DNA of 64,000 nucleotides from Vicinamibacteria bacterium (lineage in GTDB: Bacteria; Acidobacteriota; Vicinamibacteria; Vicinamibacterales; JAENWD01): the NCBI GenBank assembly GCA_963719755.1, contig CAVRDA010000021.1:431403-495402 (forward strand). Direction: 5' to 3'. Position numbers and translations under genes: made by a program. Shown in pieces: positions 1,152 through 60,569 of the stretch (positions within the stretch are counted from its first letter, which is position 1; every line of letters starts with the position of its first letter). Under the pieces are notes generated by a model that saw only the letters and a list, made by a program, of their open reading frames with translations, had not been told where the DNA came from and did no database searches.

Positions 1152-1249
1152 CCAACCAGATCAACCTGACCAACCGGATCAACCTGATCAACCTGATCAA
1201 CCAACCAACCCGACGTAACCTGACGAAACCCGACGTAACCCGACGCAAC
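1152..1249. repeat. tandem array of degenerate 9-10-nt units (GATCAACCT x about 6, then GACGTAACCY x 4) in a divergent promoter region
   Basis: Read directly: GATCAACCT GACCAACCG GATCAACCT GATCAACCT GATCAACCA ACCAACCC GACGTAACCT GACGAAACCC GACGTAACCC GACGCAAC. No complementary arm is present. Confidence 0.8.
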
Positions 1250-5826: not shown

Positions 5827-5828
5827 AC

Positions 5829-5864
5829 GGCCTTCGGCGTTCAGCCTTCAGCCTTCAGACGGCC
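5829..5864. repeat. heptamer ladder GCCTTCG GCGTTCA GCCTTCA GCCTTCA GACGGCC between two convergent stop codons
   Basis: Read directly. The plus-gene stop is TAG 5824-5826. The minus-gene stop (5855-5857) lies inside the last GCCTTCA unit. Confidence 0.75.
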
Positions 5865-6336
5865 ACGGTCTTCACGGCACCCGCACGCGTCGCGGCTTCC
5901 ACCTCCACCAGCCGTCCGGACGTGACCTCGTACAGATACCCGTAGATCGGAATCGTCGCCGGCACCAGCGGATGCTGCCGGATCCGCGTCACGTCGTCGG
6001 CCACCGCGCCCGCCTGGTCCGCGATCGTGTGCCACTCGATGTCGTCGCCCGCGATCGATCCGGGACCCGTGCCGACATCCTTGAAGCCTTCCGCGGTGAG
6101 CTCCGCCGTCTCGAGGCTGTTGCGCAGCAGGACCCGGATGACGTCGTTGGTGAAGAACTCCATGCCGCAGTTGGTGTGGTGGACGACGAACCATTCGCGG
6201 GTCCCGAGCAGCTTGTATGAGATCACCAGCGATCGGATCGCGTCGTCGGTGGCCCGGCCGCCGGCGTTGACGGATCACATGCGCGTCGCCCTCGCAGGAA
6301 CGGCCTGCGGCTAGTCGTTGCTGTTGGCGCTGCCAT
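5855..6336 (-). pseudogene. beta-class carbonic anhydrase-like gene, N-terminally truncated and frame-broken
   Basis: EGDAHVIR / [36 protein letters not shown] matches the beta-CA core. There is no room for the N-terminal CxDxR zinc-ligand motif before the upstream gene stop at 6311. An extra C near 6275 shifts the frame. Confidence 0.5.
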
Positions 6337-7235
6337 GACCGGCGTACTTCCGCTCGCCGGCGGTGACGGCGATCGGAAGTCTGTTCTGCCGCGGCGGCAG
6401 CGGGCATGTCGTGTGCGGGTTGTAGGCACACGGCGGGTTGTAGGCACGGTTGAAGTCGACGACGACTGCGCCGGACGCATCTGGGGGATCGGTGTAGAGG
6501 AAGCGGATGCGGTAAGTGAGATCGCCTGCCGTCCGATCGCTGAAGATCAGCCACAGCCGCCCGCGCGCCGCTTTCAGCGCTACGAGCCTGACCACCGTGC
6601 CGTTCACGGCAGCCTCGACCTCGCCGGGGCTCTGCATCGTCTCGACGTCGCCGAGGATGTTCTGGATCTCGACGTTGCGCGGTGTGTCGTATGGCACCAG
6701 CCGCCCGGCGATGCGCCACTTCGGGTCGACGGCAAACCAGCGCAGGCCGGTGAATCCGCGGCGGTAGGGGCTCTCGGGATCGCGCAGGCGGACGCCAAGC
6801 CGCCCGCCGCTCGGGTGGAGCTGCAGCGTGATTCGGCCGATCGTCAGCCGATCGGCCGGCGTGTCTGCGGCTGCGTTCGACGGCAGCGAGCGTGACCGGC
6901 CCGCCGACGGCGCGCCCGTTGAGAGAAGTCGCCACACCTGCCGCAGGCTCGAATCGCACGCGGCCGCCCGCGTAGATCATTCGTCCGGCTGCCGCCGGCG
7001 CGGCCTCGTCTGGCAGCACGACGTCCGCCCGGGAATCTGCGCCGACGGTGTTCACGCCGTCGTGCAGGAAGTAGAGCCCGGCAACCGACAGCCAGCCGTC
7101 CTCCTTCTTGAGGTCTGCCTCGCGCGTCTCTCGCCAGCGCTCGACCTCGGCAGCCCAATCCGCGGGCGGTGAATCAGGCAGCGCCGACGTCAGGGCGGAC
7201 AGGAGCAGAGAGAGCAGTGCAAACGTAGGCAACAT
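6311..7235 (-). CDS. DUF1684 domain protein; frame broken near 6895
   Basis: The signal peptide MLPTFALLSLLLSA and the WLSVAGLYFL part (from ATG 7235) are in a different frame from ORF 6311..6937 (RWFAVDPKWRIAGRL, NRAYNPPCAYNPHTTCPLPP). Confidence 0.75.
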
Positions 7236-19153: not shown

Positions 19154-19162
19154 CGCCACGGA

Positions 19163-19284
19163 GTGTCCATGCTGGGTGCTGGGTGCTGGGTGCTGCGTGC
19201 GGTGCTGAGTGCCGAGTGCCGAGTGCTGAGTGAGTGCTGAGTTTGCGTGCCCTGGCACGTAGCACGCAGCACGCAGCACTCACT
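19163..19284. repeat. heptamer-ladder palindrome, GTGCTGA dialect (about 12 units left arm, 4 units right arm)
   Basis: ATGCTGG GTGCTGG GTGCTGG GTGCTGC GTGCG GTGCTGA GTGCCGA GTGCCGA GTGCTGA GTGA GTGCTGA GTTTGC GTGCC ctg GGCAC GTAGCAC GCAGCAC GCAGCAC TCAC. It lies between the glgP stop (19153) and the TetR stop (19280). Confidence 0.85.
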
Positions 19285-21032: not shown

Positions 21033-21726
21033 GTGATGGCGCTGGTGCTCGCGGTTCGACTGACGCTGCGAGTTCGCGCCCTGGGGGATCCGGTAATCTC
21101 CGCGTCGCCGTTTCTCGCGGCACAGTTGGCGGTATCCGGCTTTTACGCCACGCTGGCCTTCGGCACGTGCTGCTCGCCGGTGTCGATCGGATCGGCGCTT
21201 GCCGCGGCGGCGATGCTCTTCGTCGCGGCGGGCCTCTGGTTCTCCAGTCTCCGCCCGTTTGCCCTTGTCGTCGCGACCGCCGGTCATGCGGCGGCGCTCG
21301 TGGTGTGGCCGTCGTGGCCGCTGGCGTTCACGTCGCTGCTGGTGCTCGGCTCTTCGATCCTCTTCCTCGACGATCGGCCCGGGTCTCGGCTCGTGGTGTG
21401 GGATGACACCTGCGGCTTCTGCCGGTCGAGCGTGACGCTGCTGCGGCGGCTCGACTGGCTGCACGTGCATCGCTTCGCTGGGATCGAGCGACGAGCGAGT
21501 GCTTGCCGAGGCGGGAGTGACGCGCGAAGAGGCGGAAGAGGAATTGAAGCTCAGTGTCGGCCGACGCACGCTTGGCGGCTTCGACGCGATCCGCGGCATC
21601 CTCGAGTCGCTGCCGGTGGGCTATCTGTGGGCGAGGATCCTGATGTGCCCGCCGCTCGATGCCATCGGGCGCGCCGCGTACCGCCGCATCGCGGCGAAGC
21701 GGCACTGCGTGTTGCCACAGCAGTGA
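21033..21726 (+). CDS. membrane-anchored DCC1-like thiol-disulfide oxidoreductase (DUF393); frame broken near 21490; start uncertain
   Basis: Hydrophobic N-terminal half, then VVWDDTCGFCRSSV (CxxC). The C-terminus continues in ORF 21499..21726. Confidence 0.6.
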
Positions 21727-21919
21727 GTGATCGCTGCTGGTTACGAACCCGGCGGCTGCGCTTCGCTTTACTCGACCTGCACTCTGAGCGCGAAGCAGCG
21801 CAGCGCCGCGGCGAGCAGGATGCCCGCAGACGGCAGCCACGAGGCGCCGCCGCCCGACAGGCGCAGGAAGAGCGCGCAAAGATCGCGGCCAGCAGTATGG
21901 TGAGGCTATGGGCCACCAT

Positions 21920-22024
21920 CGTCAGCCGTCAGCCCAGCAGCCATGAGCCTTCAGGTGTTGCGCAGAGTGATGCGCGCATCTGCGCAGAAGGCTGAAGGCC
22001 GGGGACTGACGGCAGGCGAAGGCC
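21920..22024. repeat. nested imperfect palindrome mixing CGTCAGC, GCCTTCAG and TGCGCAGA units
   Basis: Pairs: CGTCAG (21920, 21927) with CTGACG (22006); GCCTTCAG (21947) with CTGAAGGC (21992); TGCGCAGA (21959) with TCTGCGCA (21979). Central palindrome GATGCGCGCATC at 21969-21980. Confidence 0.75.
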
Positions 22025-22051
22025 GTGATGTGGAGGGGGTAGTCGCGATTG

Positions 22052-22257
22052 TTAGGCGAGTGCGACGTTTTCGGCGCGCGGACCCTTCGGGCCCTGACCC
22101 TTGTCGAACGTGACCGACTGTCCCTCGCGAAGCGAGTCGAATGCGACGCCGACGCACGCGGACTGGTGGAAGAAGTATCCGTGCCGTCCTGAGCCGCGAC
22201 GAATCCGAAACCCTTGTCGCTAACGAGCCGCTTGATCTTGCCGTTGACCGATCCCAT
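22052..22257 (-). CDS. cold-shock protein (CspA family); 1-nt deletion near 22176
   Basis: MGSVNGKIKRLVSDKGFGFVAAQDGTD then, after a shift, YFFHQSACVGVAFDSLREGQSVTFDKGQGPKGPRAENVALA. The span is 206 nt. SD GAGGAG upstream. Confidence 0.85.
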
Positions 22258-22528
22258 GGCGAAAACTCCTCTTCGTGTCGAAACGAGCCGACCACGCCAG
22301 ATGCGCGGCCGTTGGCTTTGATGAGTAGCTGGAGCGGTCAGCCGGCGGATGCCGGCCGTGCGACAGGGCCCAGGAAAGCGCGGCGGGCATGATAACACGC
22401 GGGAAGCTCGGCGGCACCCCTGCCACAACCTCAGCCATTCACCTCCGGCACCGGCCGCCAGGGGCTGTTCTGAATCGTTTCTGACTTGCCGCCGGGCCTG
22501 CCGCGTCCCCTTCCGGCCCGTCGATACA

Positions 22529-24761
22529 ATGGCCGTCGTGCCGGAGCAGCCTCGAGGCCGATCGCTCGCGTTCCATCCCAGCGCGCCGGCGGTCGTCCGG
22601 TTCGATCCCTTCCGCTTCGACCTGGTCGACGGATCGCTCTGGCGCGGCTCCGAGGAGATCCGCCTCCCGCCGCGCGCGCTGGTCATCCTCCAGCACCTCG
22701 TCGAGCGCGCCGGCCGCATCGTCGCCAAGCAGGCGCTGATGGAAGCGGCCTGGAAGGACGCGTTCGTCAACGAGGCGTCGCTCACCGAGGCGATCGGCAT
22801 CATCCGGCAGGCACTGGGCGACGATCCGCAGCAGCCGACCTACATCCAGACCGTCCACCGGCGCGGCTATCGCTTCATCGCGCCACTCGCGGTCGACGCG
22901 GCCGCGGCGGCTCCGTCGCCCGTGGAAGCCGAGCCGGCGGCCCAGCCCGTGAGTCCTGCGCCGACCGGCGAGTGCGGAGGCGGCCTCTCTCGCACAGACG
23001 ACGGCCGACAGGCTGGTGCGGCCCGTCGTGCTCGTTGTCGCGACGGCCCTCGTGGCTGCGGCAACGACCGCGATGGCGATGCTTTTGTGGTCGCGGCCAG
23101 GGGCGTCTTCCGCCACTGCCTCCACGACGCGGCTCAGCCTCACGCTCCCTGCCGATCAAGCGCCGGCGCCTGGCCTCAGCGCGCATCCGGTGGTGGCGCT
23201 CACACCCGACGGCACTCGCGTCGTCTACGCAGGCGGCCAGCCGGGCGCGTCGCGCCTGTTCGTGCGCCGGATGGACCAGTTCGCCGCGACGCCCATCCCC
23301 GGCACCGAAGGGGGACACGGGCCCTTCGTGTCGCCGGACGGCGACTGGGTCGCGTTCTTCTCGAGAGGCGCGCTGCGAAAGGTGCGTCTCGACGGCGGCC
23401 AGCCCAGGGTGGTCTGCGAGACGCCGACCGGTGTCGGCGGCGTGTGGCTGTCGAATCGAGGAGATCGTGTTCGTCCCGGACTGGACGAGCCCGCTGATGC
23501 GCGTCAGCGCTGATGGCGGCGCGCCCGTCGTCGCGGCGGCCGCGGCGCCAGGCGTCGGGTACCGGTGGCCCGACCGCGTTGACGAGCGCACCGTGCTGGT
23601 GACGCGCTGGCGATCGTCGGCGCGGTCGGCGGCCGTCGTCGCCATCGACCTCGTGAGCGGAGAAGAGCACGTGGTCGCCAGAGGCGGCCGCGTTCGGCCG
23701 CTTCGCGCCGAGCGGACACGTCCTCTTCGTGCGCGACGGCGCGATCTTCGCCGTCAGGTACGACCACGCCCGTCGCCGGGCGGCAAGCGCGCCGATCCGC
23801 GTCGTCGACGCCGTGCTCACCGGCATGACCGGGTCGGCCCAGCTCGCGATCGCGCCTACCGGCACGATGCTCTACATCGCCGACGCTCCCGGAACGATCG
23901 CGGCGCGTGCTCGCGCGAGTGGACCAGCGCGGGTCGCGTCGTCCCGCTGCCCGCCGAGCCGCGCGTGTTCCGTGCCTTCTCGGTCTGCGGCGATCGACTG
24001 GCGGTGACGATCCACGATCGCGGTCAATCGGATCTGTGGGTGGGGCATCTCGACCGCGCCGCCCTGACCCGGGTGACATCCGAGGGCACCGCCTTCGAGC
24101 CGGCGTGGTCGCCCGATTGCGGCACGCTCGCCTTCGGGTGGAACCGCGAGGAGGGCTACGCGATGTACGCGGTCCGCCCGGGCGCCGGCGATCCACCCGG
24201 GCGGCTGACGAAATCCACGGCGCACGCAGCTACCCGGATCCTGGTCCGGCGACGGGCGGACGCTGGCCTTCGTCGAGCAGCATCCGGACACGAAGACGGA
24301 CATCTGGCTGCTCGAGCCTTCGACGGCCAAAGCAAGGCCGTTCCTGACGACGCCGGCCGAGGAGATTCTGCCGCGCCTTTCGCCCGACGGCCGTTGGCTC
24401 GCCTACGAGTCCGATGCTTCGGGCCGGTTCGAGGTCGAGATCGCCTCGGTCGCCACCGGCGCCCGAACGCAGGTGTCGGGACGGGGCGGGACGTGGCCGG
24501 CATGGTCAGCCGATGGCCGCCAGCTCTTCTACCTCGACGAGGGGACCATCTACCGGGTGGCGTTCGACGAGCGAGAGGGCGAGTCGAGGGCCTCCGATCC
24601 GGTGGCCGTCTACACCAATCCCGACCTTCTACTCTTCAGGCCCGTCGGGCGACGGCTTCGTGATTCTTCGCCGGACCTCCGAGCACCTCCCGTTGACGCG
24701 GGTGGACGTCGTCTTGAACGAGTCGGGGGAGCTGGAACGTCAGTTCGCGGGAAAACCCTAG
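22529..24761 (+). pseudogene. CadC-like winged-helix regulator with TolB-like propeller, interrupted by at least 7 frame changes
   Basis: The VVRFDPFRFD...IQTVHRRGYRF domain, a TM helix and FVSPDG/WSPDC/LSPDGRW propeller motifs can be followed only by hopping among ORFs 22349, 23016, 22486, 23729, 23907, 24473 and 24414. Confidence 0.65.
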
Positions 24762-24838
24762 AAAACTGGCGAGACCTTCGGGGAAACCTCAGGACTTCGG
24801 ATCATCTTGCGAGCATCCTCTGCTGCAGGAGGATCCAG

Positions 24839-25613
24839 ATGGCGGTCTATCGGTTCCTGGGTTTCGATCTCGACACACGCACCGGCGAGCTGCGCCGGGA
24901 GCAGGATCTGGTGCGCCTGCGCCCTCAACCGTCCGCGGTGCTCTCGTGCCTCGTCGAACGGCATGGCCGCTTCGTCAGCCGGCAGGAGCTGCACCGGGTG
25001 GTGTGGCCGGACGGCACGTTCGTGCGGTTCGAGGACGGATTGAACTCCTGCATGAAGCAGGTACGGGCGGCACTTGGCGATTCGCGGACGGCGCCGCGCT
25101 TCATCGAGACGCTGACACGCCGCGGCTACCGGTTCATCGCGCCCGTCGTCGCGATGTCCAATGACGGGCTGGTGTCCGGGGACGAGCCGCGCGCGCGTCC
25201 GGTTGCTGCCCGTGCGCGACCTCGACGTGCCCGGACACGGCCCGCTGGCCGACGGGCTCGGGGAGGAGCTGATGGCGCAGCTGGCGACTGCGGCGCCGGC
25301 CGATCTCGCGGTCGTCGGCGACTGGCGCTCGGCGGCGGAGCCCGGCGCGCCGCGGGAAGTGGCCGCAGACTACGTGCTGGCGACGAGCGTGCGCGGCGCC
25401 GGGGCACGTCTCAGGGCGACAGCGCAGCTCATCGAGACGAGGTCACAGCAGCACGTGTGGGCCGTGCGGGTGGATCGGTCGCTCGATCACGCGCTCGACA
25501 CGCAGGCGGCAGTGGCCGAACAGATCGTGGCGGGCGTCGTGTCGGCGATTCGCGACGCCAATGACGAGGACTCGCATGACGCAGTTGACGCAGGCATCGG
25601 ATCCCGCGCATAG
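24839..25613 (+). CDS. CadC-like winged-helix regulator with TolB-N-terminal-like domain; frame broken near 25185
   Basis: MAVYRFLGFDLD...IETLTRRGYRF, then VRLLPVRDL...ADGLGEELMAQL...DYVLATSVRGAGARLRATAQLIE. SD GGAGGA upstream. Confidence 0.7.
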
Positions 25614-31554: not shown

Positions 31555-32034
31555 ATGGCGACTGCGACTGCGAAGACGATGGGCGAGGTGGACGCGCGGG
31601 TGCTGGGGCGGGTTCTCGACGAAGGCTACGGGCCTGGCGCCTGGCACGGCGCGGACATGAAGGCGGCGATTGCCGATGTGACGCCGGAACTGGCGTTCTG
31701 GCGTCCATCCGCGGAGCGACACAACATCGCCGAGATCGCGCTGCATCACGCGTTCTACATCCACTCGGTCCGCGAGAAGCTCTCAGGCGCGACCGCCGAG
31801 CCGTTCGTGCTCGAGGGCGACGACTGGTTTGCGCTCGAGCCGAACGGGCCGCTCGGCTGGCCGGAGATTCTCGAGGTGGTCGAACGCGAGCAGGCCGCGC
31901 TCGTCGCGGCTGCCGCCGGCGATCGGCCCAAGGGCCAGTCAGCCGACGAGCGCTTCGGATCGGTGCTCGGCATCACCTGCCACGCGGTCTATCATGCGGG
32001 GCAAATCCAGCTGCTGAAGAAGCTGCATGGGTAG
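31555..32034 (+). CDS. DinB family protein
   Basis: Intact 159-aa ORF with His-containing helices (IALHHAFY, HAVYHAGQI). SD AGGAGG upstream. Confidence 0.7.
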   Translation: MATATAKTMGEVDARVLGRVLDEGYGPGAWHGADMKAAIADVTPELAFWRPSAERHNIAEIALHHAFYIHSVREKLSGATAEPFVLEGDDWFALEPNGPLGWPEILEVVEREQAALVAAAAGDRPKGQSADERFGSVLGITCHAVYHAGQIQLLKKLHG

Positions 32035-32051
32035 GTCCCTGCCGCGTCTCA

Positions 32052-32092
32052 AGCGATCTGCGAATGCGCAGAGGACGCAGATTCTCTTGCGG
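32052..32092. repeat. CGCAGAT-dialect hairpin between convergent genes
   Basis: ATCTGCG (32056-32062) pairs with CGCAGAT (32076-32082). GCGCAGA lies in the loop. Confidence 0.55.
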
Positions 32093-32116
32093 TGAGTTGC
32101 CCGCCGCTGACGCGAA

Positions 32117-33181
<1,065 letters not shown>

Positions 33182-35631: not shown

Positions 35632-36228
35632 ATGACGACCACCGCTGATTTCTTCATCAACCGGGTACTGGACGCGATGCCTTCGTCGACGCCGCGGCGT
35701 CAGCAGATTGCGCTGGAGCTGCGCGGCCACATCGAGGAGCGCCTGGCCGCCGGCCTGCCGCTCGACGAGGTCCTGCACCAGTTGGGCGATCCGCGGTCGC
35801 TGGCCGAGTCGTACCTGTCGGCCGTCCCGCTGGTGGCCGGGTCTTTCTGGGCGCGCGCCGTGGCGCGCGTCGTCGACTACGCCGTATCGGTCGCCGTAGT
35901 GGCGCCGTTCGGGGTCGCAGTCTGGCTGACGAGCGACTCGAAGCTCTTTCCCCTCTGGCTCTTCGCGTACATCTTCACCGCCAGCCTGATGATCGCCGCG
36001 TATCCAATCGTCGCCGAATATCGGTACGGCAAGACCTGGGGCAAGCACCTGATGGGCCTGCGCGTCGTCCGCGAATCGGGCGCGAGGATCAGCCTCGGGC
36101 AGTCGATCGTCCGGCAGCTGCCGGTGTTCCTGCAGGTGATCTGGATCGACGCGCTGTTCGCGCTCTTCACCGACAAGAGCCAGCGCGCGTTCGAGCTGCT
36201 GTCGAAAACGCGGGTGGTGAGGGTGTAG
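35632..36228 (+). CDS. PadR-associated membrane protein with a C-terminal RDD domain
   Basis: Intact 198-aa ORF. N-terminal cytoplasmic helix region (IALELRGHIEERLAAG), then RDD-type TM segments (YRYGKTWGKHLMGLRVV). Confidence 0.65.
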   Translation: MTTTADFFINRVLDAMPSSTPRRQQIALELRGHIEERLAAGLPLDEVLHQLGDPRSLAESYLSAVPLVAGSFWARAVARVVDYAVSVAVVAPFGVAVWLTSDSKLFPLWLFAYIFTASLMIAAYPIVAEYRYGKTWGKHLMGLRVVRESGARISLGQSIVRQLPVFLQVIWIDALFALFTDKSQRAFELLSKTRVVRV

Positions 36229-36342
36229 GGTTGTGGGGTTGTAGGGTTGTAGGGTTGTAGGGTTGTAGGTTGTAGGGTTGTAAGGTCGTCAGGGCGCGAA
36301 ATCCACGCCCCTACAACCCCACAACCCAACAACCCACGACCC
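36222..36342. repeat. heptamer/octamer-ladder palindrome, GGGTTGTA dialect, G-quadruplex-capable on both strands
   Basis: GGGTTGT GGGGTTGTA (GGGTTGTA)x3 GGTTGTA GGGTTGTA AGG...GGGCG cgaaatcca CGCCC CTACAACCCC ACAACCC AACAACCC ACGACCC. It lies between TAG 36226-36228 and the minus-gene stop at 36343. Confidence 0.85.
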
Positions 36343-40351: not shown

Positions 40352-40354
40352 AAC

Positions 40355-40519
40355 GTGCTGCGTGCTTTGTGCACCGTGCCACGTGCGGTGCTGCGTGCTT
40401 CGTGCTTCGTGCACGTGCGTTCTCCGTGCAGTGCCCGTGCGGTGCTGCGGGCACGAAGCACCGCACGCGGCACGTGGCACCAGCACCGCACGCGCACGCA
40501 GCACCGCACGCAGCACGTG
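40355..40519. repeat. heptamer-ladder palindrome, GTGCTGC dialect (about 95-nt left arm, about 70-nt right arm) with nested perfect stems
   Basis: cgtgcggtgct (40436-40446) pairs with agcaccgcacg (40457-40467). cgtgcggtgctgcg (40382-40395) pairs with cgcagcaccgcacg (40497-40510). It lies between the fabF stop and the convergent stop at 40529. Confidence 0.9.
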
Positions 40520-40528
40520 GCGAACGCC

Positions 40529-42972: not shown

Positions 42973-45424
42973 CTACTCCGACCGCAGCGCCTGAATCACG
43001 TCGACCCGCGAGGCGCGCGCCGCCGGCATCAGCGACGCGACGACCGCGGCGGACACGAGCACGAGCGCCGCGCCGATGACCGGCATCATCCCGGGCAGCC
43101 GGACGTCGGTGATGTAGGCGCCGACGAGCCGCGCCAGCAAGACACCGCCCAGGACGCCAGCGACGATGCCGATGCCGGCGATGACCACGCCTTCGCCGAG
43201 GACTCGCGTCAGCAGATGGCGCGGCTCCGACCCGATCGCCAGGCGCACGCCGAACTCGCGGGTGCGCGCGCTCACCGAGAACGCCAGGACGCCGGCGACG
43301 CCGACCACGGCGATGAGCAGCGCGACGCCGGCGAAGACGCCGAACACCAGCGCGTTGAGGCGGTCGGGCGCGAGCACCTCGGCGCGCACGTCCTCGAGCG
43401 TCGCCGCCTGTTCCACGGGCTGATCGGCCGACAGGTCGCGGATGACGCGCGTGATCGGCCGCACGAGCGAGTACGGGTCGGTCCGGGTGTGCACGAACAG
43501 CCGGCCGCCGCCGATTTCCTGCTCGAATGGGTGATAGACGCTCATCGCCGGTCCAGGCACGACGTTCTCGTCGTCCACGTCGGCGACGACGCCGATGATG
43601 CGCCGCGGCCCCGTGCTGACGTCGATGAACTTCATCACCGGGTCGGTCCACATGAAGTTGCGGTTCAGCGCGTCCTGGGTGGCGAACATCCGCTGCGCCA
43701 GGCTCTGGCTGACGATGACGACCTTCTCGGCGTCGCGGCGATCCGCGTCGGTGAAGTCGCGGCCCGCGATGATCGGCACGCCGAGCGAGGCGAAGAACCC
43801 TGGCGACACCGTGCGGAAGCGCGCGCGGGGATCCTCTTCGCCGCCCGCCTTGGCGTAGCCCTCGGCGGAAAACTGGAATCCCGGTCCGAACGTGCCCGCG
43901 TCGCGCCACGGCACGACGGTGCCGACGGCCACCCGCTCCACGCCCGGCAGCTCGCCGATCCGCCGCAGGATCTCGCGATAGAAAGCGGCGGTCTGCTCCG
44001 GCGGTCGCGAGTACGACACGATCGGCACGTTGATCGCGAGGACGTTCTGCGTGTCGAAGCCGGTTGGCGCCGACTGCAGCGCCAGCAGCGTCGTCAGCAG
44101 CATCCCCGCGCCGGCGAGCAGGACGAACGACGCCGCGATCTGCGTGACCGCGAAGACGCGCAGCCGCCGGTTGGTGCCCGAGGTGAGCCGCACGCTGCCG
44201 TTCGACAGGCTGATGCCGCTCGACGCGTCGGCGTTCGGCAGCCGCGGCACGAACGCCAGCAGCACCGACGCCGTCAAAGCCAGGGCGACGCCGACCCACA
44301 GCAGCGTCGAATCCACCGTGAGGTCGAGCGCTCGCACCGAGAATCGCGAGGCGTACTGCGCCAGGATCGCGACCATCGGCCGCGCGATGAGCACGCCGAG
44401 GACGGCCCCGGCGCCGCAGAGCAGGAGGCTTTCCGCCAGCAGCGTCCGGCGCAGCGCGCCGGTGCTCGCGCCCAGCGCCGCACGCACGGCCAGCTCGCCC
44501 TCGCGCCGGACCGAGCGCGCCAGGATCAGGTTCGCGACGTTCGAGCAGGCGATGACGAACACCAGCGCCGACGCCGCCAGCAGCACGAGCAGCACGGTTC
44601 GCGCTGGCGAGATGATCTGGTCGCGGAGCCGGGTCACGTCGATAGCGAAGTTGGCGTCCTTCGGGTACGACTCGCGGTGCTGCGGCGACGATCGAGGAGT
44701 GGATCGTCCGCAGCTCGGCGCGCGCGGCCTCGATGTCCGCGCCGGGAGCCAGCCGGCCGAAGAGCTCCGTCATCCGGTGCACGCGCCCGTGCACCATCGT
44801 CGCGTCCAGGTGGTGCGGGCTGGTGACGACGTTGGAGATGATCTCGGTCTGCGACGGATATGGCACCGACGGCTCGAGGACGCCGACGATCGTCGCGGAC
44901 CGATCGCCGAGGCGGATGTTCCTGCCGATCAGGCTCGCGTCGCTGGCCAGGGTCGTGGACCAGAAGCGATGCGTCAGGACCACGGCGCCGGCGGCCTGCG
45001 CGCCGTCGTCTCTGGGGCCGAGCAGGCGGCCGAGCACCGGCTTGAGGCCCATCACGTCGAAGTACGAGCCGCCGACGACGCCGGCCCTGACGACGCGCGG
45101 CTCGCCCAGGCCCACCATCGTGAAGTCGATGGTCGAGAAGTCGCCGAAGGCCGCAAGCGTCCGGGCGCGCGAGCGCAGGTCGTTGAGCTCGGGCACCGAG
45201 AACGCGGCGTTGTCGGCGCCGATGCCGCGCGCGCTCTGGCGGATGTAGACCAGGCGGTCCTCGTCCTCGTTGACCAGCGGCCGCAGCAGCACGCCGCGGA
45301 CGACGCTGAAGATGGCCGCGTTGGCGCCGATGCCGAGCGCGAGCGTCACGATGACCGTGATGGCCAGACCCTTGACGCGGGCCAGGGACCGGAGGGCGAA
45401 GCGGAAGTCGGTCAGTATCGTCAT
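42973..45424 (-). CDS. ADOP-family duplicated MacB/FtsX-type permease (no adjacent padR); frame broken near 44680
   Basis: [40 protein letters not shown]-terminus from ATG 45424, then ORF 42973..44637. The span is 2452 nt. Confidence 0.85.
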
Positions 45425-45476: not shown

Positions 45477-45670
45477 GTGCCGCGTGCTTCGTGCCATGTG
45501 CCTCGTCCGTGCTTCGTGCCTCGTGCCGCGTCCGGTGCTTCGTGCCTGGTCCCTTCGTGCAGAGCCGCCGCCCCGGGGACCGCAGCCGGCACGCGGCCCG
45601 CACCCAGCACCCGGCCCATGACACCGCACGCGGCACCGCACCCAGCACGCGGCACCAAGCACTCAGCACC
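45477..45670. repeat. heptamer-ladder palindrome, GTGCTTC dialect (about 85-nt arms) in a divergent intergenic region
   Basis: GTGCCGC GTGCTTC GTGCCAT GTGCCTC GTCC GTGCTTC GTGCCTC GTGCCGC ... then GCAC GCGGCCC GCAC CCAGCAC ... GCGGCAC CGCAC CCAGCAC GCGGCAC CAAGCAC TCAGCAC. Confidence 0.85.
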
Positions 45671-45759: not shown

Positions 45760-45782
45760 GGCGGGCGGAGGCGCACGCCGGG

Positions 45783-51621: not shown

Positions 51622-51684
51622 GTTCACTCGGGCCGAGGCTTGTCGGCGAGGGGGTCGCGCGACCAGGGCGTGCGCACAGCGCGG

Positions 51685-54345
51685 CTACTGATCGCGCAAG
51701 ACGACGAGCGGATCGACGCCCATCGCCCGCCGCGTCGGCACGTAGCAGGCGGTGAGCGTGACGAGCGAGACGACAAACGCGACGGCCGCGTAGGTGGCGG
51801 GATCGGTCGGGCTGATGCCGTAGAGCTCGCTGGCCAGCAACCTCGTGACCGCCAGCGCGCCGGCGACGCCAATCGCGATGCCGGCGGCGCAGAGCATCGC
51901 GCCTTCCTTGATGACCAGCCAGAACACGTCGCGCCGCTGGGCGCCGAGCGCGAACCTGATGCCGAGGTCGCGGGTCTGCCTGGACACGAGGAACGAGAGC
52001 ACGCCGTAGACGCCGGTGCAGCCGAGCACCAGCGCCAGGCCTGCCATCGTGACGAGCAGCGACGTCGTCGCGGCCGGCGCGGCGACCGCGTCGGCAAACA
52101 CCGCGCGCATCGGCTTGACGTCGTCCACCACCACGTCGCCGCTGATGTCAGCGGCGGCCCGGCGGAGCATCGTCGCCGTCTGCTCGCTGGACAGCGACGT
52201 GCGGAGCGTCAGCGTCATGTCCGCGGCGATGCGCCCGTCCTCCATCGTCGCGTTTGGCCCATGAGGCACGTAGAGCGTGCCGACAATCCAGTCCGGCACG
52301 TTGCGGGTGGGGTCGAACGCGCGCACGTCCGCCGACGACGCCGACGACGGTGTGCCAGTGGTCTTCGCCGACGAAGCGCACGTGCCGGCCGATGGGATTC
52401 TGGTCCGTTCCAGAACTGCTTCGCCGCCGACGCGGTCACGATGGCGACGGGCGGACCAGCGAGGTCCTCGGCGCGAACGGCGCGGCCCGATTCGAGGCGG
52501 ATGCCCATGACGCCGGAAGTAGTCCGGCGTGATCACGTTCATCCAGAAGAGCGGCGCGCTCTTCGATGCCGGCACCGTGTAGCCCTCGATGTCGAGCGAC
52601 CGCTTCGCGACGGCGCCGCTCAGCGGCAGCGTGTTCACGAACGCAGCGCCGGTCACGCCGGGCATCGCCTGCACGCTCGTCGTCGAGCGTGCGGTAGAAG
52701 GCGAGGCACCGTTCCGCCGTGTCGCACAGCGACTCGGTCGGCGAGATGCGCGCAGTGATCACCTGATCGGGCCGGAAGCCGAGGTCGGCGCGCGAGAGAG
52801 ACCACATGCTGCGGACGAGCAGACCGGCGGTGATGACGAGCAGTACCGCGCAGGCAATCTGCGCCACCGCCAGCGCGGTCCTGAACGGCCGCGCGATCGA
52901 CCGGCCGCCGGAACGGCCGCCGGATTCAAGTGTCGTGCGCAGCTTGATGCGCAGCGCCTGCAGGACCGGGGCCAGGCCGAACGCGCAGCCAGTCAGGATC
53001 GCCAGGGCGCCGGTGAACGCCAGCACGCGCCAGTTCAGGTGCACCTCGTCGAGGCGCGGCGTATCGGCGGGCAGCACGAGCTTCAGAATCGACAGCGCCT
53101 GCGACGCCAGCAGCAGGCCGGCGGCCGCGCGCCAGGCGAGGCCAGCACGACGCTCTCGGTCAGCAGCTGCCGCGCGATGCGCCACGGCCCTGCGCCCATC
53201 GCGGAACGGATCCCGATTTCACGCTGGCGGGAGATGGCCCTCGAGAGACTGAGGTTGGCGACGTTCGCGCACGCGATGACGAGCACGAGCGCGACGGCGG
53301 CGATGAGGATCAACAGCCGCGTGCGGACGCCGCCGACGAGCGCGTCCTGAAGCGGCATCACCGCCAGGTTCTCGTTCCAGTCGTCGGGCATCCGCCACGG
53401 GAACCGCGCGCGGACCCGCGACTGAAAGAGCTGCAGCTCCGACTGCGCCTGCGACATCTGCGCGCCCGGACGAAGCCGGCCGACGACCGGCATGAAGTCG
53501 CCCGCCCAGTAGTGCGTGGTGTTCGCGGGATCGAGACCGAGCGGCACCCACACCTGCGTTCTCGCCGAGGGGAACTGGAACGACGCCGGCATGACGGCGA
53601 CGACCTCGCGCGGCACGCCGTCGAGCTCGATGAACCGGCCGACGATGCCGGGGTCCTGATGAAAGCGTGTGGCCCAGATGGCGTGGCTGAGGATCACGGA
53701 CCGGTCGCGCGGCGCGTGGTCCTCTCCAGGGCGAAGCCATCGGCCGAGCGCCGGCTTCACTCCGAGCACCGAGAAGAGCTCGGCGGAGACGCGAGTGCCG
53801 GAGATCCGTGCCGGGTCGCCGGCGCCGGTGAGCGTGAACGACTTGCCTTCGGCGTAGACGCCGACGTCGAGGCTTCGCACTTCGTCGCGCATCGCGGCGA
53901 ACGCGCCGTTCGGGTACGAGGCCTTGACGCTGACGAGCCTGTCGGACGCCGGATAGGGAAGACGCGCGAGCAGGATGCCGTCGACCAGGCTGAAGACGGC
54001 GGTGTTGACGCCGCTGCCGAGCGCGAGCGTGAGAACGGCGACGGCGGTGTAGCCCGGGCTGCGCAGCAGGGTACGCAGCGCGTATCGCACGTCCTGCAGG
54101 CCGCTGACGATCAGATCGACGCGGCGCTCGTCGCGGCAGCGCTCCTTTGACTGGTCGACGCCGCCGAAGTCCCGCACGACCACCCGCCAGGCTTCGTCGC
54201 GATCCATGCCGGCAGCCACCCGCTCTTCGACCTGGCGCTCCAGGTGGTACTGGATCTCGTCGTCCAGGTCCTGGTCGACCTGGCGGCGGCGGACGATCGA
54301 CCGCCACCTGAGGGGCAGGGCGTACAGCCAGTGTTCGAGCCGCAT
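51685..54345 (-). CDS. ADOP-family duplicated MacB/FtsX-type permease (padR-coupled); about five frame breaks (near 53140, 52685, 52505, 52395, 52330)
   Basis: MRLEHWLYALPLRWRSIVRRRQVDQDLDDEIQYHLE... N-terminus and ACANVANLSLSR. The C-terminal FtsX module is in ORF 51685..52674. The pieces lie in ORFs 53083, 52436, 52215 and 52148. Confidence 0.75.
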
Positions 54346-54360
54346 GGCTTACCTTCGGCG

Positions 54361-54696
54361 TTATGCGCGATTGAGGTTCACGACGTGGGTGATCGCAGCC
54401 GAGAGCCGCGCCCAGTTCTCCGTTTCCTTCGCGAGGTGGCGGTGCCCGAGGCGGCTGAGCGCGTAGAACTTCGCGCGGCGGTTGTTCTCGGTGACGCGCC
54501 ACGTCGCGGTCACCCAGCCTTCCTGTTCCAGCTTGTGCAGGGCCGGGTAGAGCGACCCGTCGCTCACCTGCAGCGTGTTGCCCGACACCTGCTTCAGCCG
54601 CTGGCTGATGGCATGGCCGTTCAGCGGCTCGAGCGCGAGTATCTTCAGCAGCAGCAGGTCCAGCGTGCCCTGGACGAGATCCTGGGGTTTGCTCAT
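54361..54696 (-). CDS. PadR family transcriptional regulator (acidobacterial type, upstream of ADOP)
   Basis: MSKPQDLVQGTLDLLLLKILALEPLNGHAISQRL...SDGSLYPALHKLEQEGWV. The stop lies 15 nt upstream of the ADOP start. Confidence 0.85.
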   Translation of the reverse strand: MSKPQDLVQGTLDLLLLKILALEPLNGHAISQRLKQVSGNTLQVSDGSLYPALHKLEQEGWVTATWRVTENNRRAKFYALSRLGHRHLAKETENWARLSAAITHVVNLNRA

Positions 54697-54701
54697 GTGC
54701 C

Positions 54702-54743
54702 CTCGGTTACCGAGAGGAGCATACCAGACGCTCCGCTCGGTAA
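54702..54743 (-). promoter_or_regulatory. perfect palindrome CTCGGT-A-ACCGAG next to the padR ATG plus an upstream complementary copy (8-bp inverted repeat TTACCGAG/CTCGGTAA); candidate PadR operator
   Basis: The minus strand reads cTTACCGAGcggagcgtctggtatgctcctCTCGGTAACCGAGggcacATG. Confidence 0.45.
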
Positions 54744-54757
54744 GCAAGGGGAGGACG

Positions 54758-54879
54758 TGTAGGGATTGTAGGGTTGTAGGTTGTGAGGTTGTAGGGTGGC
54801 CGTTGTAGGGTTGTGCCGTAGGTAGGGAGATACCCCAGTCCTCCCTACAACCCCACGACCCTCACAACCCCACAACCCT
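54758..54879. repeat. heptamer/octamer-ladder palindrome, GGGTTGTA dialect
   Basis: TGTAGGGAT TGTAGGGT TGTAGGT TGTGAGGT TGTAGGG..TTGTAGGGT... with core GTAGGGAG (54822-54829) pairing CTCCCTAC (54841-54848), then ACAACCCCACGACCCTCACAACCCCACAACCC. Confidence 0.85.
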
Positions 54880-54884
54880 CTTCC

Positions 54885-55688
54885 TTACTGCGGCATCGGG
54901 ATCACGCCGAAGGCCTGATACAGCTTCTCCATGTTGGCGCGGAGCGGGCCGAACGCGGACAGCGTCGTCGGCGACGCACCGGCGGCGGTGGTGTCCTTGC
55001 TGAGCTTTCCGGCGCTGTCGAACATCAGCCGCGCCTCGGCGGTCGCAGGCTTGTCGTCGTCGATGCGCGACTTGACGGTCTTGCACGCCTTGGACAGATC
55101 GTCGGCCTGCTTCTTCAGCGCGTCGCGCTGCGGTTGCGCGATGGCCTGATCGCGCTCGATCGCGTTCTTGACATCGTCAGCCTGCTTGGCCGCCAGCTCC
55201 GCCGCCTCCGCGGTTTCGTTGTCGTTCATGCGGCGCGCAGCGCCATCGGCGGGCATCGGAAAGGTCGTGCCGTACGCCGAGGCGAGCGTGCCCATCAGGC
55301 CGGCGAGACGATCCCATTCGCTCGAGCCCTTCATGGTGTTGGGCTGCCCCTTCATGTAGCCGTTGATGTCAGTCCCCTGCCTCAGCACTGTCAGCGCTTC
55401 GCTGCTCGCCGAGTAGTCGGACGAAAAGCGCTCCTTGAGGCGATTCACGTTCTCCTGCAAGTCGTCGAGGTACTGGTCGACTTTCACCTCGCCGCGCGGC
55501 CCTCGCACGATCGAGTTCTTGAAATCATTGTCGAGGGCATCCTCGAACCGATCGCGGCCTTGGTGGACGTCTTCGATCAGCTTCTTCAGGTCGTTGTCGT
55601 TCAGCCGCGGAACGTCCTGGGCGCCGACGATGCCGGCGACGAGGATTGCCGCGGCGACGAGAAGACCGTTTCGGTGGAATCTGGACAT
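54885..55688 (-). CDS. hypothetical secreted protein
   Basis: Intact from ATG 55688 (MSRFHRNGLLVAAAILVAGIVGAQD signal peptide). Helical, charge-rich. No family recognised. Confidence 0.55.
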   Translation of the reverse strand: MSRFHRNGLLVAAAILVAGIVGAQDVPRLNDNDLKKLIEDVHQGRDRFEDALDNDFKNSIVRGPRGEVKVDQYLDDLQENVNRLKERFSSDYSASSEALTVLRQGTDINGYMKGQPNTMKGSSEWDRLAGLMGTLASAYGTTFPMPADGAARRMNDNETAEAAELAAKQADDVKNAIERDQAIAQPQRDALKKQADDLSKACKTVKSRIDDDKPATAEARLMFDSAGKLSKDTTAAGASPTTLSAFGPLRANMEKLYQAFGVIPMPQ

Positions 55689-60502: not shown

Positions 60503-60569
60503 GATTACGCCGATTGAAACTGGATTACGCGGAGGATCTATCCGCAGATTTCGCAGATTTCCCAGATTT
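60503..60569. repeat. CGCAGAT-dialect tandem units (GATTACGC x2; CGCAGATTT x3) overlapping the 3-prime end of the TetR gene
   Basis: The sequence reads GATTACGCcgattgaaactgGATTACGCggaggatctatcCGCAGATTTCGCAGATTTCCCAGATTTt. On the minus strand the 9-mers encode ...KSGKSAKSA.... Confidence 0.7.

Follow-up and report, generated by a model that had tools for sequence, protein, structure and literature searches.

A strain-variable intergenic inverted short-tandem-repeat element between a gene end and a padR promoter

Introduction

Large bacterial genomes rich in G+C contain an excess of tandem repeats with short units of 7-10 nt. In cyanobacteria (Calothrix/Nostoc), the STRR heptamers form dispersed intergenic arrays, and the heptamers are genome-specific. 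These STRRs are usually described as single direct arrays, whereas the element reported here is a complementary pair. Repeats of 7-10 nt have been noted in Xanthomonas and Nostoc (PMC4692102, which cites the STRR heptamers as its reference 39) and in Geobacter (PMC2700814).

The G-rich heptamers of Xanthomonas (GGGAATC) and Nostoc (GGGGAYT) were described by Rehm et al. (2015, PLoS One), who associated the repeat regions with increased genomic stability (PMC4692102). In Xanthomonas, 70-75 inverted pairs of GGGAATC arrays are found per genome; the pairs lie near the stop codon of the 5' neighbour and their length differs between Xcc and Xac (PMC4692102). Paired tandem GTTGCTYN octanucleotide and MTYCTGA heptanucleotide repeats were reported for Geobacter metallireducens by Aklujkar et al. 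(2009) and annotated, as a proposal, as putative sites for global regulators (IHF/HU) (PMC2700814). Another group of extragenic palindromes, the REP/BIME sequences and REPINs, is tagged by GTAG or CGTC (Di Nocera et al. 2013, PMC3733652).

The element analysed here belongs to a known, poorly understood kind, and its closest counterparts are the Xanthomonas heptamer pairs and the Geobacter octanucleotide pairs. It is located in a stretch of 64 kb, referred to as the window. A literature search by the repeat sequence string returned primer lists only.

Results

The element and its neighbours are arranged as follows, in the order of transcription on the minus strand:

54885..55688, minus strand: upstream gene, coding for a secreted-looking protein of 267 aa; stop codon TAA at 54885-54887
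54843-54880, plus strand: C/A-rich arm, CCCTACAA CCCCACGA CCCTCACAA CCCCACAA CCCTC; read on the transcribed (minus) strand it is G/T-rich and the first arm past the stop codon, GAGGGTTGTGGGGTTGTGAGGGTCGTGGGGTTGTAGGG
54816..54842: non-repetitive centre, or loop
54758-54815, plus strand: G/T-rich arm, first part TGTAGGGA TTGTAGGG TTGTAGG TTGTGAGG TTGTAGGG, remainder TGGCCG and then TTGTAGGG TTGTG; read on the minus strand it is C/A-rich, CACAACCCTACAA CGGCCA CCCTACAACCTCACAACCTACAACCCTACAATCCCTACA
54700..54750, minus strand: padR promoter/operator, with a -35 box TTGCTT (54742-54747), a -10 box TATGCT (54718-54723) and a spacer of 18 nt
54361..54696, minus strand: padR, 111 aa, PF03551
51685-54345: ADOP/MacB-type permease gene, next after padR

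The stretch 54758-54879 was found to be an imperfect palindrome of 122 nt, composed of degenerate 7-8-nt units (GGGTTGTR and its complement). The first-pass annotation had placed a GGGTTGTA ladder palindrome here, between a gene end and the padR promoter, and both the sequence and the location were as it described. A gap of 5 nt (CTTCC) separates the element from the upstream stop codon, as had been stated. At the other side it ends 11 nt from the -35 box and 61 nt from the padR start codon (ATG, 54694-54696), in agreement with the earlier figure of about 60 nt. The arms are unequal, the C/A-rich one in the minus-strand reading (54758..54815) being longer than the G arm (54843..54880). Tandem Repeats Finder detected a period of 8 in both of them, with 5.0 copies at 54758-54797 and 4.4 copies at 54843-54878. 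The inverted-repeat search gave the pairs I1-I18, and the arrays are convergent, G-rich once per strand. The proposed core stem with an 11-nt loop was recovered among the inverted repeats as an exact 8-bp pair, with GTAGGGAG at 54822-54829, in the centre, and CTCCCTAC at 54841-54848, running into the adjacent arm; the minimum-energy folds use a longer outer register in its place. Since the arms are tandem repeats, many pairing registers are possible. Most units contain GTAG, which lies within the paired arms; a single terminal tag is absent. A spurious ORF of 60 aa spans the element.

The unit is more frequent than expected by chance. Allowing at most one mismatch, the window has 20 occurrences of GGGTTGTAGG, where 1.0 would be expected; none of 100 shuffles reached 20. 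Folding of the transcribed (minus) strand as RNA gave -71.1 kcal/mol, compared with -48.5 +/- 4.1 kcal/mol for shuffled sequences (z -5.6). The values for the plus strand (-68.2 kcal/mol, z -4.6) and for the element as DNA (-33.6 kcal/mol, z -4.1) were also well below those of shuffles. On the minus (sense) strand, 54833-54878 matches the canonical G-quadruplex (G4) motif (G3+ N1-7)x4. Neither strand has a T/U run after the hairpin, and no terminator was predicted at the element by the scan. In 60 kb of the window, 16 canonical terminators were found against about 22 expected, so that no enrichment was seen. At the gathering threshold, Rfam recognized no family in the whole window; at E<=1, the region 54500-55100 matched only generic long-hairpin (miRNA-precursor) models, with scores far below gathering. 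The 78-nt stretch around the 3' arm, which is C/A-rich on the sense strand, has a composition of C39/G5 and is one of just four stretches of 78 nt with C/G >=3 when both strands of the 64 kb are counted. Judged by base content, the arm appears similar to a Rho-utilisation site.

The padR promoter is an independent one and overlaps, at its -35 and -10 boxes, a palindrome with 21-nt arms (half-sites TTACCGAG/CTCGGTAA). This promoter region is kept in all relatives, including the one lacking the ladder; among 41 distinct padR leaders of Acidobacteria, 33-34 have the same promoter layout. A metagenome scan with a 19-mer of the padR leader yielded 53 loci, mostly paralogous padR leaders, and none of them was an orthologue of the element site. 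The scan helped to define the promoter/operator, and other ladders were noticed upstream of some of the paralogues. When the upstream 267-aa protein was used as query in the metagenome scan, no confirmed relative was obtained; no Pfam family was assigned to this protein. Exact-sequence look-ups of the PadR, 284-aa and 119-aa proteins of the window and of P0243 retrieved no record.

Beyond the window, five versions of the element site were recovered, one of them a loss. Relative A, with 95-97% DNA identity in aligned blocks, carries the same units in other numbers and a centre about 60 nt longer. The centre of the window element (54816..54842) is homologous to those of relatives A and D (GGACTGGGGTATCTCCC) and shows a deletion of about 60 nt relative to A. 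In relatives D (L110) and E (L111) the flanking protein is identical, yet E has two extra units; the L111 contig ends inside the element. Relative C (L054) keeps the element and its unit at 75% identity of the flanking protein. Its centre segment CGAAACAGGGGCATCTCC is inverted with respect to A, and a CCTACGC sub-ladder is new. In relative B (L053) the element is absent, with the upstream gene, the padR promoter/operator and padR all intact; this absence rests on one fragmented contig, in which the empty site reads TAAGG-CCGCGGTA-CCCCCGCCCT. A G4 motif is present on the sense strand just past the stop codon in the window and in relatives A, C and D. A further contig (L055, flanking protein 61% identical) was considered as an orthologous site and discarded, as it is not syntenic and has no ladder.

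The orthologues were also compared for strand preference in RNA folding. In the window (sense vs antisense, -70.0 vs -64.4) and in relative A (-107.9 vs -103.4) the sense strand gives the more stable fold, whereas in L054 the antisense strand is better by 20 kcal/mol (-85.3 vs -105.6). Selection on the element at the RNA level was rejected on the basis of this inconsistency.

The window contains at least five ladder palindromes with differing units, all of them intergenic and mostly adjoining stop codons. Two are built from the GGGTTGTA unit, and further short-unit arrays are present. The ladders other than the element include:

1152..1249, plus strand: C/A-rich half-ladder of CCAACCTGA units and then AACCCGACGT units, without a complementary arm
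19160..19283: ladder palindrome with unit TGCTGAG ... GCACGCA, between convergent phosphorylase and TetR-family genes
36212..36342 (the 36222 site): sister GGGTTGTA ladder palindrome, filling the whole spacer between convergent genes
40354..40520: GTGC-unit ladder palindrome, -122 kcal/mol, between convergent ketoacyl synthase and FMN reductase genes
45477..45670: GTGC-unit ladder palindrome between divergent gene starts

The first unit of the sister element includes the stop codon (TAG) of the RDD-family gene (35632-36228), and the right end of the sister element adjoins that of an ADOP gene (TAA, 36343). The two GGGTTGTA copies have only units in common and their centres are unrelated. They had been thought to have 12-13-mers in common, a figure that needs correction, the longest common word being 19 nt. 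The element at 45477..45670 is flanked by a minus-strand ATG (45422-45424) and by a plus-strand cytochrome-c/PQQ gene starting near 45780; it measures 194, 125 and 141 nt in three strains, with conserved outer ends and a variable centre. Unit periods among the ladders are 7, 8, 9 and 10 nt, and the GTGC-unit and 10-nt-unit ladders lack G-tracts. In about 13 of 16 ladder palindromes the G/T-rich arm is 5' on both strands, a chirality that hints at selection or at a directional process. Repeats of the GGGTTGTR type are also found across many phyla, in the genomes of isolates as well as in short-read MAGs.

Ladder presence differs among relatives at window positions 36212, 40354 and 32040. At the 36222 site the GGGTTGTA ladder is replaced in relative A by a complete palindrome with units of 10 nt, and about 85% of the half-ladder at 1152..1249 can be aligned, with the same unit order, to the right arm of that palindrome. 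At 40354, relative B has the left arm only, and relative A has unrelated GAGCGAGCG repeats, which look amplified from a local GCGAAGCGCC beside the stop codon. The idea that structure is kept while sequence is replaced was rejected: the non-ladder alleles (window 32034-32120, relative A at 40354 and the minus strand of relative B) fold no better than shuffles (z -0.8 to +1.3). Since the alleles at 40354 and 32040 fold like shuffled sequences, structure is not conserved per site. In relative A the gene call of an ADOP gene is extended through one ladder.

When compared with the repeats of Rehm et al. (PMC4692102), the element displays tandem 7-8-nt units with a G3 tract and two convergent arrays, on opposite strands, capable of forming a stem-loop or cruciform. 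Both are intergenic (about 90% in their case) and very near, or overlapping, the stop codon of the 5' neighbour. Length and sequence vary widely between close relatives with the type preserved, and both have G4 potential. The element differs in its octamer (GGGTTGTR), in its Acidobacteria-like genome of 69% G+C, in the company of non-G4 ladders (GTGC and 10-nt units) in the same genome, and in that loss or replacement of whole elements and inversion of the centre are documented here between strains. As in the Geobacter pairs, a run of 4-5 short tandem units has its counterpart, made of the same units, on the opposite strand at variable distance, and the copies are multiple and intergenic; the units are others, and a comparison of strains is available only here.

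The likeness to REP/BIME sequences is more limited. These are also extragenic palindromes, mostly downstream of genes and between co-directional and convergent ORFs; GTAG is present in the element as well, and REPs have been hypothesised to act as RNA hairpins in mRNA stabilisation or termination. On the other hand, REPs are single hairpins of 20-40 bp with one unpaired tag, conserved across hundreds of copies and linked to RAYTs, whereas the element has 122 nt, tandem units and a paired GTAG, and its copies have only the unit in common. Classification as a single REP/BIME palindrome was discarded on account of length and tandem units. With intrinsic terminators the element has in common a G+C-rich hairpin directly past a stop codon, with the G-rich half 5'. 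It differs from them by a stem of about 45 bp with internal loops, instead of 5-14 bp and a loop of 3-8 nt, and it is not conserved in orthologous position. As no U run follows the stem-loop, an intrinsic (Rho-independent) terminator was rejected.

Discussion

The element is best regarded, with a probability of roughly 0.6, as a copy of a strain-variable intergenic class of inverted short tandem repeats that is driven by slippage and fold-back and may impede read-through. Its structure, its class membership and its hypervariability are direct observations. So are the inversion of the centre, the polymorphism in unit number and the loss or replacement in relatives.

As the mechanisms behind this variation, we infer slippage and template switching, and any effect on transcripts is put forward in the same sense. 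On the minus strand, GGGTTGTR units start 5 nt past the stop codon and are followed by a short centre and then by complementary C/A-rich units. The formation of such an element, and its continual remodelling, would take place in the DNA. Units would be gained and lost through replication slippage in each arm, and the complementarity of the arms would be upheld by fold-back (template-switch) synthesis or inter-arm recombination, processes that would also delete or flip the centre. Whole elements would occasionally be lost or replaced. The element may persist because it lies in a non-coding spacer. In the mRNA of the upstream gene it could fold to a hairpin of about 45 bp with G-U pairs; alternatively, the G arm could adopt a G-quadruplex, leaving a C-rich, G-poor tail. 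Each of these structures is probably a partial obstacle to read-through into padR or to 3' decay.

Selection of the hairpin as a device that ends transcription of the upstream gene and shields the padR-ADOP promoter appears unlikely as the explanation of the element, even if some impediment to read-through is plausible. A strong hairpin does begin 5 nt past the stop codon, the element persists down to the relative with a 75%-identical flanking protein, and the G-first chirality offers a G-rich 5' arm to transcripts from either side. The rut-like composition of the 3' arm (C39/G5 over 78 nt) would also suit this role, but the hairpin would mask the C-rich arm. Canonical hairpin-plus-U terminators are not enriched in the window and therefore other termination modes must operate there, which is favourable to such a function, as is the finding that, in Xanthomonas, repeats with G4 capability coincide with transcript starts or ends more often than control repeats do (PMC4692102). 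Termination, if any, is more likely to take place by pausing plus Rho than intrinsically. However, the U-tract is absent, relative B lives with intact genes and promoter without the element, and the antisense strand of L054 folds better than the sense strand by the 20 kcal/mol given above. Moreover, the class is also found between divergent starts (45477-45670), where no terminator is expected, and structure is not conserved where a ladder is replaced. None of the analyses gave evidence for a specific insulator role. The element is neither a canonical intrinsic terminator nor required.

The preferred reading of a slippage-driven repeat class has its own gaps. In-situ slippage does not explain why the unit is kept at the site across species-level divergence, nor why it recurs at the unlinked 36212 locus and in many phyla, and a change in unit number alone cannot produce the whole-allele replacement at the 36222 site. 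The chirality seen in about 13 of 16 ladder palindromes also counts against it. Mobility offers an alternative, though an improbable one: the palindromes would be non-autonomous (MITE- or REP-like), and a trans-acting enzyme such as a Y1/HUH transposase of RAYT/TIRYT type, recognising the hairpins and the recurring GTAG, would spread copies of them from one intergenic site to another. Presence and absence at the element site (B against the others), the complete change of ladder family at the 36222 site, the composite unit order common to the 1152-1249 array and the arm of relative A, the same units at unlinked loci and the REP tag GTAG in most units all agree with it. In addition, the TIR-associated Y1 transposases of Acidobacteria form a group of their own (PMC3733652). 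Against mobility, the junctions of filled and empty sites (element and 36222 sites) show no target-site duplication or defined termini, and the two GGGTTGTA copies match in units only. Pfam found no transposase, RAYT included, among the window ORFs (including 20 from 1-25 kb) or the annotated genes in about 42 kb of relative A. A MITE would be expected to have near-identical full-length copies at unlinked loci; none were seen, with the 10-nt-unit family as a partial exception. The variation is mostly in unit number, explained by slippage, and the repeats at 40354 look locally seeded.

A more speculative reading, in which the ladders are selfish DNA, self-templating and independent of a transposase, and the GGGTTGTA unit number is a heritable, rapidly mutable dial, is given little credence. 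Ladders could nucleate at gene ends and grow by hairpin slippage or elongation, and could be overwritten wholesale by other ladder families between strains. As for the dial, competition between G-quadruplex and hairpin could hide or expose the C-rich, G-poor arm, similar to a Rho-loading site, and could set the transcription leak into the padR-ADOP operon.

It is very unlikely that the element is a DNA- or RNA-structure or protein-binding site modulating padR or the upstream gene, with the G arm as a G-quadruplex or the tandem units as an array for nucleoid or regulatory proteins. The sense-strand G4 motif past the stop codon in four versions of the site, G4 formation in vitro by analogous repeats (PMC4692102), the unit sequence conserved across relatives and the distance of 11 nt to the -35 box are consistent with such a site. 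They are outweighed by the ladders without G-tracts (GTGC and 10-nt units), by periods of 7, 8, 9 and 10 nt that fit no single binding geometry, by the dispensability of the element in relative B and by the complementary arm, which would compete with a G4 via duplex or hairpin.

The assemblies of the window and of relatives A and B seem to be of the long-read type, as seen in the contig naming ('contig_NNNN', a long-read assembler style, for A and B), in fragmented genes, split in the window and fragmented as calls in B, and in many single-base indels (8 in the ADOP gene when the window is compared with an intact relative); because of these indels, the 7-nt units of the window (GG for GGG) may be consensus errors. 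An artefact of assembly or base-calling in long-read metagenomes is effectively refuted as the origin of the element, with a negligible probability left, because an element of this kind is also present in independent contigs of short-read type (L054, L110, L111), this type is seen at the same site in the JGI/Logan contigs (set L054, L110-L114) and the repeat also occurs in the isolate genomes and short-read MAGs mentioned above; fine details such as 7-nt versus 8-nt units are uncertain.

For practical purposes, ladder repeats mislead gene callers (the ADOP extension in relative A and the 60-aa ORF), break assemblies (L111) and could act as VNTR-like strain markers in metagenomes. For uncultured soil Acidobacteria, the locus provides a naturally occurring series of alleles of a single site, with differing unit numbers, flipped or deleted centres, complete loss and replacement by another repeat family. 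Such a series is well suited for testing whether hairpins or G-quadruplexes affect transcript ends.

Anatomy of the element and its neighbours

Tandem units make up a long, imperfect palindrome at 54758-54879. Its G/T-rich arm on the plus strand is built of degenerate 7-8-nt units (TGTAGGGA TTGTAGGG TTGTAGG TTGTGAGG TTGTAGGG ... TTGTAGGG TTGTG), and a centre of 27 nt separates it from a C/A-rich arm of complementary units (CCCTACAA CCCCACGA CCCTCACAA CCCCACAA CCC); single-base details of these units are uncertain, as the way the contig is named, its fragmented genes and its single-base indels suggest that the window comes from a long-read-type assembly. Tandem Repeats Finder detected period-8 arrays in each arm. 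A repeat finder returned 18 inverted-repeat pairings, spread over many registers; one of them is the exact 8-bp core around an 11-nt loop that the first-pass annotation had described together with both arms. That annotation had also reported 12-13-mers shared with the sister copy at 36212-36342; the sharing was confirmed, with a longest common word of 19 nt. Counted with at most one mismatch, the decamer GGGTTGTAGG has 20 occurrences in the window versus 1.0 expected. Two copies of CGGGTTGTAGGCAC, 18 nt apart at 6417-6444, represent GGGTTGTAGG words in coding sequence, within a DUF1684 gene (6311-6976, minus strand).

As RNA, the transcribed (minus) strand folded at -71.1 kcal/mol, compared with -48.5 +/- 4.1 for shuffles (z -5.6). 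The plus strand gave -68.2 kcal/mol (z -4.6 versus shuffles) and the DNA -33.6 kcal/mol (z -4.1 versus shuffles).

The three neighbouring genes are all on the minus strand:

54885-55688, minus: upstream gene, 267 aa, no Pfam family, TAA stop at 54885-54887
start at 54696, minus: padR (PF03551), followed by an ADOP/MacB-type permease gene

The geometry had been correctly noted: the element lies 5 nt from the upstream stop and 61 nt from the padR ATG. This 61-nt interval holds a promoter-like TTGCTT-N18-TATGCT, and a palindrome (half-sites TTACCGAG/CTCGGTAA) overlaps it; the -35 box lies 11 nt downstream of the element's end. Of 41 distinct Acidobacterial padR leaders from metagenomes, 33-34 have the same layout; padR therefore has a conserved promoter and operator of its own. 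The module (window 54700-54750; loci L056-L108) has the conserved form CCC-CTTGCTTACCGAG-CGGAGC-N-TAnnnT-N-CTCGGTAACCGAGG-N-ATGAGCAAACC and recurs in dozens of paralogous Acidobacterial padR leaders, those of L057, L061, L063, L077, L088 and L099 having other short-unit ladders immediately upstream.

A class of ladder palindromes

At least five ladder palindromes, i.e. intergenic pairs of complementary short-tandem-repeat arms able to form a long hairpin, were found in the window (68.6% G+C), the class having been surveyed in these 64 kb and in about 42 kb of one relative (A):

19160-19283: unit TGCTGAG/GCACGCA, between convergent genes
36212-36342: unit GGGTTGTA, between convergent genes, one end overlapping the TAG stop of an RDD gene and the other touching the TAA of an ADOP gene
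40354-40520: GTGC units, between convergent genes
45477-45670: GTGC units, between divergent gene starts
54758-54879: unit GGGTTGTA, the present element

Half-arrays occur at 1152-1249 and 5826-5858. The former is a C/A-rich half-ladder in a divergent intergenic region (CCAACCTGA about five times, then AACCCGACGT about four times); the latter (GCCTTCA x4) occupies the whole of a very short spacer separating convergent stop codons. A further array at 60543-60569 consists of CGCAGATTT x3.

The class is confined to spacers, where its members abut stop codons or overlap them. The TAG stop (36226-36228) of an RDD/HAAS-family gene (35632-36228) is contained in the first unit, GGGTGTAGGG, of the ladder at 36212-36342; its C-terminal residues differ among strains (...VVRV*, ...VVTV*, ...VVRGA*), and therefore the repeat reshaped the C-terminus. 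In a TRF-based scan of the window and retrieved sequences, about 13 ladder palindromes had the G/T-rich arm 5' on both strands, against three of opposite chirality. The 19-mer GGGTTGTAGGGTTGTAGGG forms intergenic arrays in Armatimonadota, Bacteroidales, cyanobacteria, Chloroflexi, Acidobacteriota and other phyla, several of them with a complementary ladder after them.

Variation among relatives

Relative A (ENA contig_44731, 544 kb; L051, L052, L109) is 95-97% identical to the window in aligned blocks. Its element at the 54758 site differs in unit numbers and has a centre about 60 nt longer with its own small hairpin. Contig D (L110, JGI) carries the version nearest to that of the window; E (L111) has two more G-arm units than D, although its 284-aa protein is exactly identical to that of D. 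In C (L054; flanking protein 75% identical) the element and unit are kept, a CCTACGC sub-ladder is new and the centre segment CGAAACAGGGGCATCTCC is on the opposite arm compared with A, i.e. the centre is inverted. No element was found at the orthologous site of B (L053, 94-97% identical), as read in one fragmented contig, where GG-CCGCGGTA-CCCCCGCCCT and then an intact padR leader come after the stop codon. By the same signs as the window, A and B are likely long-read-type assemblies. From the pattern across A-E, presence is ancestral, with an apparent loss in B, and the element changes much faster than its flanks.

Other sites show similar or more drastic changes. At the 36222 site, three short-read-type contigs have the GGGTTGTA ladder, with 6 units on the left and 3 on the right versus 8 and 4 in the window. 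A instead carries a full palindrome, about 190 nt long and made of 10-nt units (GTTTCGTCRG ... AACCCGACGY), in which only the first GCGTAGGGG is kept; its right arm could be aligned at about 85% to the unlinked half-ladder at 1152-1249, with identical unit order. Site 40354 has one arm only in B and GAGCGAGCG-type repeats in A, which look amplified from a local GCGAAGCGCC adjoining the stop codon. In the convergent-gene spacer 32040-32116, A has a 150-nt TCCCAAC/GTTGGGA ladder palindrome (L109 6313-6461; -91 kcal/mol, z -9.9) of the opposite, C-first chirality, whereas the window has ordinary, unstructured sequence with CGCAGA-type motifs. The non-ladder alleles folded no better than shuffles (z -0.8 to +1.3), and therefore strong structure is not maintained at a given site. 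Overall, unit number changes between contigs with an identical flanking protein, centres are deleted or flipped, and whole elements are lost or replaced.

The permease gene after padR (51685-54345, minus) is split into three reading frames in the window versus an intact 884-aa gene in A, from which it differs by 8 single-base indels and 82 substitutions; this is likely a long-read consensus error, or else a pseudogene. The region 21700-25400, with many overlapping fragmented ORFs, intermediate third-position G+C and Trans_reg_C as the sole recognisable domain, probably represents one large gene or several, disrupted by frameshifts. About 2.5 kb of A (L051 14093-16572), encoding a GntR-family regulator, a Band_7 protein and a 195-aa protein, are missing at window 51622-51682.

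Function and origin

The annotated description and geometry were sound, but the function proposed with them, termination of the upstream gene and insulation of the padR-ADOP promoter, was weakened. Neither strand has a T run after the hairpin, and a terminator scan gave no site at 54758-54879; hairpin-plus-T sites in 60 kb of the window showed no enrichment (16 versus about 22 expected). Rfam gave no match, only generic long-hairpin models far below threshold. Besides the missing U-tract, the element is dispensable in B (apparently lost there, hence not required), the same class is found between divergent promoters, structure is not conserved per site and the sense strand has no consistent folding advantage.

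Ladder palindromes are an already known, poorly understood kind of element, of which the present one is a new case. Xanthomonas genomes have about 185 GGGAATC arrays each, about 90% of them intergenic (mean 28 nt from the 5' neighbouring ORF), with 70-75 cases per genome of two close convergent arrays; array length differs between species, G4 formed in vitro and no function is established (Rehm et al. 2015, PMC4692102). The present architecture matches these convergent arrays, as well as the opposite-strand pairs of tandem octa- and heptanucleotide repeats in the Geobacter metallireducens genome (PMC2700814). REP elements share the niche and a GTAG tetranucleotide, but they are sequence-conserved single hairpins of 20-40 bp linked to RAYT transposases (PMC3733652), features that the present element does not show in the 64 kb of the window and the about 42 kb of A covered.

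Replication slippage would alter unit number, while fold-back (template-switch) synthesis and inter-arm recombination could keep the arms complementary and invert the centre; selection against coding-sequence disruption may set the boundaries. End-joining or templated repair is a conceivable source of such repeats, with a hypothetical link to the ATP-dependent DNA ligase (DNA_ligase_A_N/M/C domains) encoded at 3074-4576. In the upstream mRNA, a hairpin of about 45 bp would begin 5 nt past the stop codon. Alternatively, the G arm may form a G-quadruplex, leaving a C39/G5 tail. The sense strand has the quadruplex motif in the window, A, C and D, and only four 78-nt windows in the 64 kb (both strands), the tail among them, have C/G >= 3. 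Either form might slow the polymerase, block a 3' exonuclease or load Rho.

Beyond this explanation lie the recurrence of units at unlinked loci and across phyla, whole-allele replacement without target-site duplications, and the G-first chirality bias. These features keep alive two improbable readings, namely that ladders are self-templating selfish DNA or a mutable read-through dial.

The public call of the ADOP permease gene in A (L109 10654-12387) extends through a ladder palindrome, giving a spurious C-terminus; the true stop comes about 140 nt earlier on that strand. Ladder repeats mislead gene callers.
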